NCBI RefSeq assembly: GCF_003334385.1
Contig: NZ_QOWN01000003.1
DNA length: 64,000 bases
Reading direction: 5' to 3' (one strand)
DNA from: Escherichia coli
GTDB lineage: Bacteria; Pseudomonadota; Gammaproteobacteria; Enterobacterales; Enterobacteriaceae
Positions 25,364 to 26,305 of the stretch are shown here, one piece after another (within the stretch, counting starts at the first letter, position 1; each line of letters begins with the position of its first letter). The notes beneath the pieces were generated by a model. That model was not told the origin of the DNA. It saw nothing but the letters and a program-made list of their open reading frames with translations, and made no database searches. Both the position numbers and the translations under genes were made by a program.

Positions 25364-25963
25364 CTAAACGGCAGGCGTCGCAATAATGTTTTTTACATGG
25401 GCCAGCGCGTTTTCCAGTGGCTCGAAACTGCGCGAAATTTTGGCCTGCAGATTCGCGCCAAGCCACAGTGCGTAAAGCACTTGTGCCTGTTGCAGCGGTT
25501 CGCCACAAAAGGTTAAACAATGGTTCTCACGGCCATTTTCCAGCGCCTGAGAGAGCAGGGCGATCACGCCGCGAGCACCTTTATCCATCGCGCTGCGCAT
25601 ATCTTCTGACAGATCGCACACTTCGGCAGAGAGTTTTACTGTCAGGCAACCACTGATGGTTCCATGTTGGCAAAACTGGTTCAGTGTTTGCTGGTAATAA
25701 GCCAGTATGCGGTCGCGGTAGTTACCTTCGCCGGATTGCAGCAACTCAGTCAGTCGCTGGTGATATGCGGCGTAATGACGCTCAAGCATGGCAACGCCAA
25801 ACGCTTCTTTAGAGCGAAAGTAGTGATAGAAGGACCCTTTCGGCACTTCAGCGGTTTTTAGTAATTCGCTTAGCCCCATCCCGGTGAATCCACGTTGCAG
25901 GCAAAGTTGCTCGCCCGTCGCCAGGAGATGTTCGCGAGTATCATGTTCGGTGTGTTTGTTCAT
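25364..25963 (-). CDS. nemR: TetR-family repressor NemR
   Basis: 199 aa; TetR HTH near N-terminus; palindromic operator immediately upstream. Confidence 0.9.
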   Translation of the reverse strand: MNKHTEHDTREHLLATGEQLCLQRGFTGMGLSELLKTAEVPKGSFYHYFRSKEAFGVAMLERHYAAYHQRLTELLQSGEGNYRDRILAYYQQTLNQFCQHGTISGCLTVKLSAEVCDLSEDMRSAMDKGARGVIALLSQALENGRENHCLTFCGEPLQQAQVLYALWLGANLQAKISRSFEPLENALAHVKNIIATPAV

Positions 25964-25977
25964 GCGTTGGAGTGTAG

Positions 25978-25993
25978 TAGACCAGTCGGTCTA
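25978..25993. promoter_or_regulatory. NemR-box-like inverted repeat in nemR promoter
   Basis: TAGACC-AGTC-GGTCTA, perfect 6-bp arms, 15 bp upstream of the nemR start; a second repeat CAAAGT-TGCT-ACTTTG at 26001-26016. Confidence 0.65.
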
Positions 25994-26065
25994 GTGCAAG
26001 CAAAGTTGCTACTTTGGACATTAACAGCTTCAATAATGGTAATAATCTTATCTGAGGAGGGCGAA

Positions 26066-26305
26066 GTGGCGGAGCAATTAGAGTTCTTTCCCGTCCAGAG
26101 CCCGTGCCGGGGAATTTGCCAGTCTGACGAACGCGGGTTTTGTCGCGGCTGTTTTCGTAGTCGTGATGAGCGTTTTAACTGGAATAAAATGAGCGATGGC
26201 GAAAAACAAGAGGTGCTGCGCCTTTGTCGGCAGCGATTAATGCGCAAATTACGCGCAAATAAGCCAGCGTCATCAGACGAACCGGAGCAACCATCACTCT
26301 TTTGA
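26066..26305 (+). CDS. ydhL: DUF1289-family small Cys-rich protein YdhL
   Basis: 79 codons from GTG at 26066 with GAGGAGG RBS; CxGxC...CxGC motifs; the track ORF 25895.. is an upstream extension. Confidence 0.7.
   Translation: MAEQLEFFPVQSPCRGICQSDERGFCRGCFRSRDERFNWNKMSDGEKQEVLRLCRQRLMRKLRANKPASSDEPEQPSLF

Follow-up and report, generated by a model that had tools for sequence, protein, structure and literature searches.

The nemR and ydhL genes lie back to back in the window, that is, the whole stretch of E. coli DNA analyzed here (64 kb), whose numbering is used throughout. A 1.1-kb query around the spacer between them matched all 5426 complete E. coli genomes. In the RefSeq annotation of a strain identical to the window over this query, gloA, nemA, and nemR, encoded by the minus strand, are followed in order by ydhL, ydhF, and sodC, encoded by the plus strand. 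The list of open reading frames and this annotation agree on nemR (25364–25963, minus strand), which encodes a TetR-family repressor of 199 amino acids. The ydhL gene (26066–26305, plus strand) encodes a 79–amino acid DUF1289 protein. Its GTG start is taken from RefSeq, and orthologs detected by tblastn share this start codon, which reads ATG in E. albertii and Superficieibacter.

The intergenic spacer is 102 bp long and holds two inverted repeats, which were pointed out in the initial annotation as lying between nemR and the GTG-initiated ydhL and which we confirmed in the sequence. IR1 (TAGACC-AGTC-GGTCTA) is located at 25978–25993 and IR2 (CAAAGT-TGCT-ACTTTG) at 26001–26016; in each, perfect 6-bp arms flank a 4-nt spacer. 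They are indeed close neighbors, but the gap between them is 7 nt (25994–26000) and not 8 bp as first given. For comparison, NemR was scanned for in one genome per species, which yielded 80 loci. The ydhL gene adjoins nemR in 19 of these, so that 20 sequences, including the window, represent the arrangement studied here.

The NemR box and the nemR promoter

The sequence of IR1, TAGACCGACTGGTCTA, is printed as an exact 16-mer, in the nemR orientation, in the RutR ChIP-chip paper, which places it between genes, at −22.5 relative to ydhM (nemR) (PMC2475637). The dyad TAGACC-N4-GGTCTA matches this 16-mer exactly at 25978–25993, and the distance of its center (25985.5) from the nemR ATG (25963) agrees with the published value. 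According to a review, the NemR-binding site is within the nemRA promoter, its mutation derepresses the operon, and RutR is also bound in this upstream region but does not regulate it (PMC5297802). The nemR promoter was the single target of NemR in gSELEX (PMC5934670). The reading of IR1 as a TetR-type operator for NemR, made in the initial annotation, is thus borne out, and IR1 as a NemR/RutR site is already published. In sequence, in position, and in genomic context, IR1 does not differ from the NemR box of the E. coli nemRA-gloA operon. IR2 does not belong to that box, since its half-site is different and the two repeats are not conserved together. By footprinting, Umezawa et al. (2008, J Bacteriol 190:5890) reportedly showed that NemR binds this palindrome, TAGACCGACTGGTCTA, and named it the NemR box.

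The pattern [TC]AGAC-N5-6-GTC[TC][AG] was found just upstream of the nemR homolog in 71 of the 80 loci, from Enterobacterales to Burkholderia. IR1 is also part of a longer imperfect palindrome, whose extended fold has a z score of −4.75 and was equaled by 0 of 200 shuffles. The conservation and the fold together place IR1 far beyond chance. The box is not uniform in length: it is 16 bp long in Enterobacterales (TAGACC-N4-GGTCTA), and distant nemR homologs from Burkholderia, Vibrio, Photobacterium, Vogesella, and others (loci L037 to L081) have a 15-bp box, TAGAC-N5-GTCTA (for example, CTAGACGACCGGTCTAA), which sits farther from the start codon.

The transcription start site (TSS) of nemR is the A of the ATG at 25963 on the minus strand, making the transcript leaderless (Kim et al. 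2012, supplement to PMC3415461: TSS 1724047, 5′UTR of 0, 15 reads). A second supplementary file of the same study includes nemR among genes with a 5′UTR of 0 to 3 nt; leaderless mRNAs are ascribed to 18 E. coli genes in the main text, and the TSS of K. pneumoniae ydhM (nemR) likewise has a 5′UTR of 0 (PMC3415461). The 50-mers that this study gives upstream of the nemR and ydhL TSSs are identical to the window, and nemR of K. pneumoniae has the same promoter and box as that of E. coli.

Judged by its distance from the mapped TSS, TACACT (25971–25976, minus strand; −13 to −8) is the putative −10 element; the orthologs have TAyyAs or TAcagT here. The putative −35 element is TTGCAC (25994–25999, minus strand; −36 to −31), and in all Enterobacterales loci TTGCAy or TTGACC lies directly upstream of the box. 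The two hexamers are separated by 17 bp, and IR1, at −30 to −15, occupies 16 of these 17 bases. The distance from the end of the box to the nemR ATG is also maintained, being 13 to 15 nt in 27 of 29 Enterobacterales loci. A NemR dimer bound to IR1 would block RNA polymerase, probably by steric exclusion at the nemR promoter, and nemRA-gloA would remain autorepressed until electrophiles or HOCl modify the cysteines of NemR. The NemR box is also bound by RutR. In these respects, nemR resembles other autoregulated promoters of the TetR family with the operator in the −35/−10 spacer and a leaderless mRNA, with the regulator as the first gene of the operon. ATTGAAG was considered as the −35 element of a second promoter in the nemR direction and rejected: there is no usable −10 element at 16 to 18 bp, and the mapped TSS disagrees.

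The ydhL promoter

The TSS of ydhL is an A at 26041 on the plus strand, with a leader of 25 nt (supplement to PMC3415461: TSS 1723969, minus strand, 5′UTR of 25, 2 reads in one dataset, upstream 50-mer ending in ...CAATAATGGTA). At the canonical distance from this TSS, TTGCTA (26006–26011; −35 to −30) is followed after 17 bp by TTCAAT (26029–26034; −12 to −7), each of the hexamers matching at four of six positions, with T and not A at −11. In an alignment anchored on this module, TTGC and CTTCAAT alone were invariant, and the surroundings were not conserved. Of the 20 sequences with ydhL adjoining nemR, 19 have the full arrangement, TTGCnn-N17-TTCAAT, without deviation; the 20th, Shimwellia, reads CTTCACT. 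A Shine-Dalgarno sequence, GAGGAGGG, can be read at 26054–26061, and its AGGAG is kept in most orthologs. Transcription of ydhL would therefore proceed from this −35/−10 pair, starting at 26041 and producing a leader with a strong Shine-Dalgarno sequence. The comparative footprint provides ydhL, a gene of unknown function, with a well-supported promoter, TTGCnn-N17-(C)TTCAAT.

A consensus promoter scan detected neither the nemR nor the ydhL promoter in the spacer. We rejected this result as evidence that there is no promoter, since both mapped promoters are below the thresholds of the scan. Reading ACTT...TCAAT as a σE promoter was also rejected, as its spacing does not fit and its −35 part lacks conservation. 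RNA polymerase probably uses exactly the hexamers given above at both genes.

Several other features of this region can be mentioned. The C at −13 in the −10 region of ydhL (CTTCAAT, 26028–26034) is fixed. A C at this position is associated with σS promoters, and sodC, located downstream, is σS dependent. An AT-rich sequence, CAATAATGGTAATAATCTTATC (26031–26052), spans the ydhL TSS and is not conserved outside Escherichia and Citrobacter. By eye, it is loosely similar to a Fur box, with ~13 of 19 positions shared with the consensus GATAATGATAATCATTATC. Just outside IR2, within the ydhL promoter spacer, ~1000 E. coli genomes carry A26018G.

The second inverted repeat

The −35 hexamers of nemR and ydhL point away from each other and are 6 bp apart. 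The six central bases of IR2 are the ydhL −35 hexamer itself, and the center of the repeat lies at −32.5 when counted from the ydhL TSS and at −45.5 when counted from the nemR TSS. The arms would thus consist of the 5 bp on either side of this hexamer, namely the linker to the nemR −35 element and the first bases of the ydhL promoter spacer. IR2 had been proposed as possibly controlling ydhL; this holds only in a trivial sense, as its center is the ydhL −35 element, and a separate regulator site is not supported.

Palindromes of this size are common by chance. The 64-kb window contains 30 perfect 6-4-6 repeats and 294 perfect repeats with 6-bp arms and spacers of 0 to 10, or ~0.46 per 100 bp. 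In a Markov-1 simulation of the 102-bp spacer, the probability of at least one perfect repeat with 6-bp arms was 0.18, and that of the exact 6-4-6 geometry was 0.024. The IR2 hairpin has a z score of −1.75, and its fold was equaled by 12 of 200 shuffles. IR2 does not exceed chance expectation.

The folding data also bear on the possibility that IR2 acts as a nucleic acid structure, either a hairpin in a leader RNA or a DNA cruciform. A 6-bp stem with a 4-nt loop can form (−4.1 kcal/mol as DNA), but this stem is weak and no better than its shuffled versions. IR2 is located upstream of both mapped TSSs and is present in neither mRNA, which excludes a role as RNA on current data. An Rfam scan returned nothing relevant, the arms show no covariation, and the sole arm variant observed (see below) is uncompensated. 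A structural function of IR2 is barely conceivable.

The half-sites of the NemR box (TAGACC) and IR2 (CAAAGT) share two of six positions, in agreement with the initial impression that IR2 is not obviously the same motif as IR1. Comparison by eye with the PurR, marbox, RutR, and NemR motifs gave no match, and there is no likeness to the RutR consensus TTGACCAnnTGGTCAA (PMC2475637). When up to one mismatch was allowed, the IR2 motif occurred as a single copy in the 64-kb window. IR2 might still be a secondary, low-affinity site for NemR (or RutR), with one extended operator covering both repeats and co-regulating ydhL. Binding of dimers in pairs is known for some TetR-family repressors, and IR2 has the same 6-4-6 geometry as the NemR box located 7 bp away. 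The dissimilar half-sites stand against such a site, as does the single target of NemR in gSELEX (PMC5934670); the arrangement in other genera, presented in the next section, bears on it further.

In the searchable literature, we found no regulators other than NemR and RutR on the spacer; the only other site reported near ydhL is an intragenic σ54 site in nemR. This published site, IA14 (CTGGTTCAGTGTTTGCT, 25676–25692, plus strand; PMC4591121), is antisense to nemR and directed toward ydhL. It was considered as an identity for IR2 and dismissed, as it is located elsewhere.

Comparison of the spacer across species

At the positions equivalent to the IR2 arms, all six pairs are formed in E. coli, a divergent E. 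coli, and E. albertii. The other 17 sequences form 0 to 3 of the six pairs, with a mean of ~1.6 versus 1.5 expected by chance. Exact IR2 arms were found at only two of the 80 scanned loci, those of divergent E. coli (L002) and E. albertii (L003). Other genera therefore do not conserve IR2 despite conserving the ydhL promoter, and the complementarity of its arms would have arisen by happenstance, in Escherichia only.

The nemR and ydhL −35 hexamers are separated by as few as 3 and as many as 85 nt, and the linkers are unrelated. Each promoter is therefore a module in its own right, and the position of the NemR box with respect to the ydhL promoter is not fixed. As judged from these alignments, this argues against conserved control of ydhL by NemR and against a conserved composite operator. 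The sequence adjoining the box is unrelated across genera and the distance from the box to the ydhL promoter varies by 82 nt; such variation rules out conservation of a two-site operator or of ydhL control by NemR. Considering also the half-site and gSELEX data, we regard a secondary NemR or RutR site at IR2 as extremely unlikely. In many TetR systems, one operator region serves both divergent genes. Here, the divergent ydhL promoter forms its own module, whose distance from the NemR box varies, which makes shared control by NemR unlikely.

Extra palindromes unrelated to IR2 are present in 5 of the 17 orthologous spacers from outside Escherichia, at ~0.3 per 100 bp, in keeping with the base rate of 0.46. 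The Siccibacter spacer contains GGCAGG-N7-CCTGCC, which is also centered near the ydhL −35 element; TGCAAG-N4-CTTGCA in Enterobacter sp. BIGb0383 is built of both −35 hexamers; and Pluralibacter has CGATTCGCGAATCG. The spacer resembles back-to-back divergent σ70 promoters whose −35 elements give rise to an incidental dyad, with TTGC and GCAA words on opposite strands making palindromes. The E. coli palindrome is centered on one of the −35 elements, that of ydhL, and not between the two.

The E. albertii intergenic spacer is 222 nt long compared to 102 nt in the window, with ~120 nt between the ydhL −10 element and the start codon. As judged by the ERIC1R and ERIC2 primer sequences, this insertion in the ydhL leader (…CGCTCACCTCAGCCACTTACTTTAGTAAGCTCCTGGGGATTCA…) is similar to the ERIC/IRU repeat.

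Variation within E. coli

The stretch 25990–26015 is exact in 5229 of the 5426 E. coli genomes (~96%). The variants resolved over this stretch were A26002G and T25995C, and ~80 further variant genomes fall outside these counts. A26002G, present in 24 genomes from diverse hosts, breaks one pair of the IR2 arms without a compensating change at 26015. T25995C, found in 92 genomes, converts the nemR −35 element from TTGCAC to TTGCGC. IR2 thus shows good but incomplete conservation in a species of low divergence, and no covariation supports a constraint on the dyad. E. coli, a divergent E. coli, and E. albertii all retain IR2 unbroken, with variation in the bases immediately to its right. This, together with the high proportion of exact matches, is compatible with mild constraint, partly explained by the nemR and ydhL −35 hexamers located there. 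A 30-mer carrying the flank variant of L002, for which a guessed sequence was used, had no match in complete E. coli genomes.

These data have to be weighed against the possibility that IR2 is an Escherichia-specific operator for an unidentified dimeric transcription factor, which would repress ydhL by occluding its −35 element and might also modulate nemR. A perfect 6-4-6 dyad positioned over a core promoter element, retained in the three Escherichia sequences amid varying neighbors and exact in ~96% of E. coli genomes, speaks in favor of such an operator. However, the dyad is absent from other genera, is of a kind that arises frequently by chance, has a single copy in 64 kb, and carries the uncompensated arm change in 24 genomes. 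In addition, the literature examined reports only NemR and RutR on this spacer, RutR having the IR1 16-mer as its site (PMC5297802, PMC5934670, PMC2475637). We consider an operator of this kind very unlikely. The more specific version, a recently evolved Escherichia operator for an unknown dimeric regulator that represses YdhL and possibly couples ydhL to nemR, is likewise very unlikely. If it were true, a new operator would repress a small Cys-rich DUF1289 protein.

A 16-nt direct repeat, TGCA(G/A)GCAAAGTTGCT, is present at 25896–25911 and 25995–26010, 99 bp apart, with 15 of 16 positions identical. One copy is in the nemR codons for EQLCLQ, and the other extends across the nemR −35 element and the left part of IR2. 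In E. coli FDAARGOS_1258, a deletion junction lies within this 16-nt repeat, consistent with loss of the intervening 99 bp. The deletion removes the 5′ end of nemR, its promoter, and the NemR box, and nemR is annotated as a pseudogene in this strain. In two other strains, USDA-ARS-USMARC-51688 and Z1323CEC0011, IS1A interrupts the matched nemR-ydhL-ydhF stretch; the annotation of one of the two splits the DUF1289 gene into two parts.

Discussion

Overall, the nemR/ydhL spacer very probably consists of two independent back-to-back promoters of the σ70 type, one of them with a known operator, IR2 being a fortuitous palindrome. The proposal of the initial annotation that IR2 could be the site of a second regulator finds no support, given the lack of arm conservation outside Escherichia, the chance-level frequency of such repeats, the uncompensated arm substitution, and the two of six positions shared with the NemR half-site. 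A fortuitous palindrome is the most likely reading of IR2, and it appears that no protein uses it as a dyad site. Most likely, the region as a whole is ordinary, combining a published operator with a chance palindrome. The useful outcome is a negative one: the apparent second operator is cleared up as the ydhL −35 element with lineage-specific flanks. Since the NemR box and the ydhL promoter do not keep a conserved position relative to each other, nemR and ydhL are best treated as independently controlled neighbors.

One observation concerning the function of ydhL can be added. An ASKA overexpression screen identified ydhL as one of the genes conferring resistance to both H2O2 and HOCl (PMC8228696). 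This phenotype is of interest for a gene located beside the HOCl-sensing nemR, although the two promoters appear to be independent.
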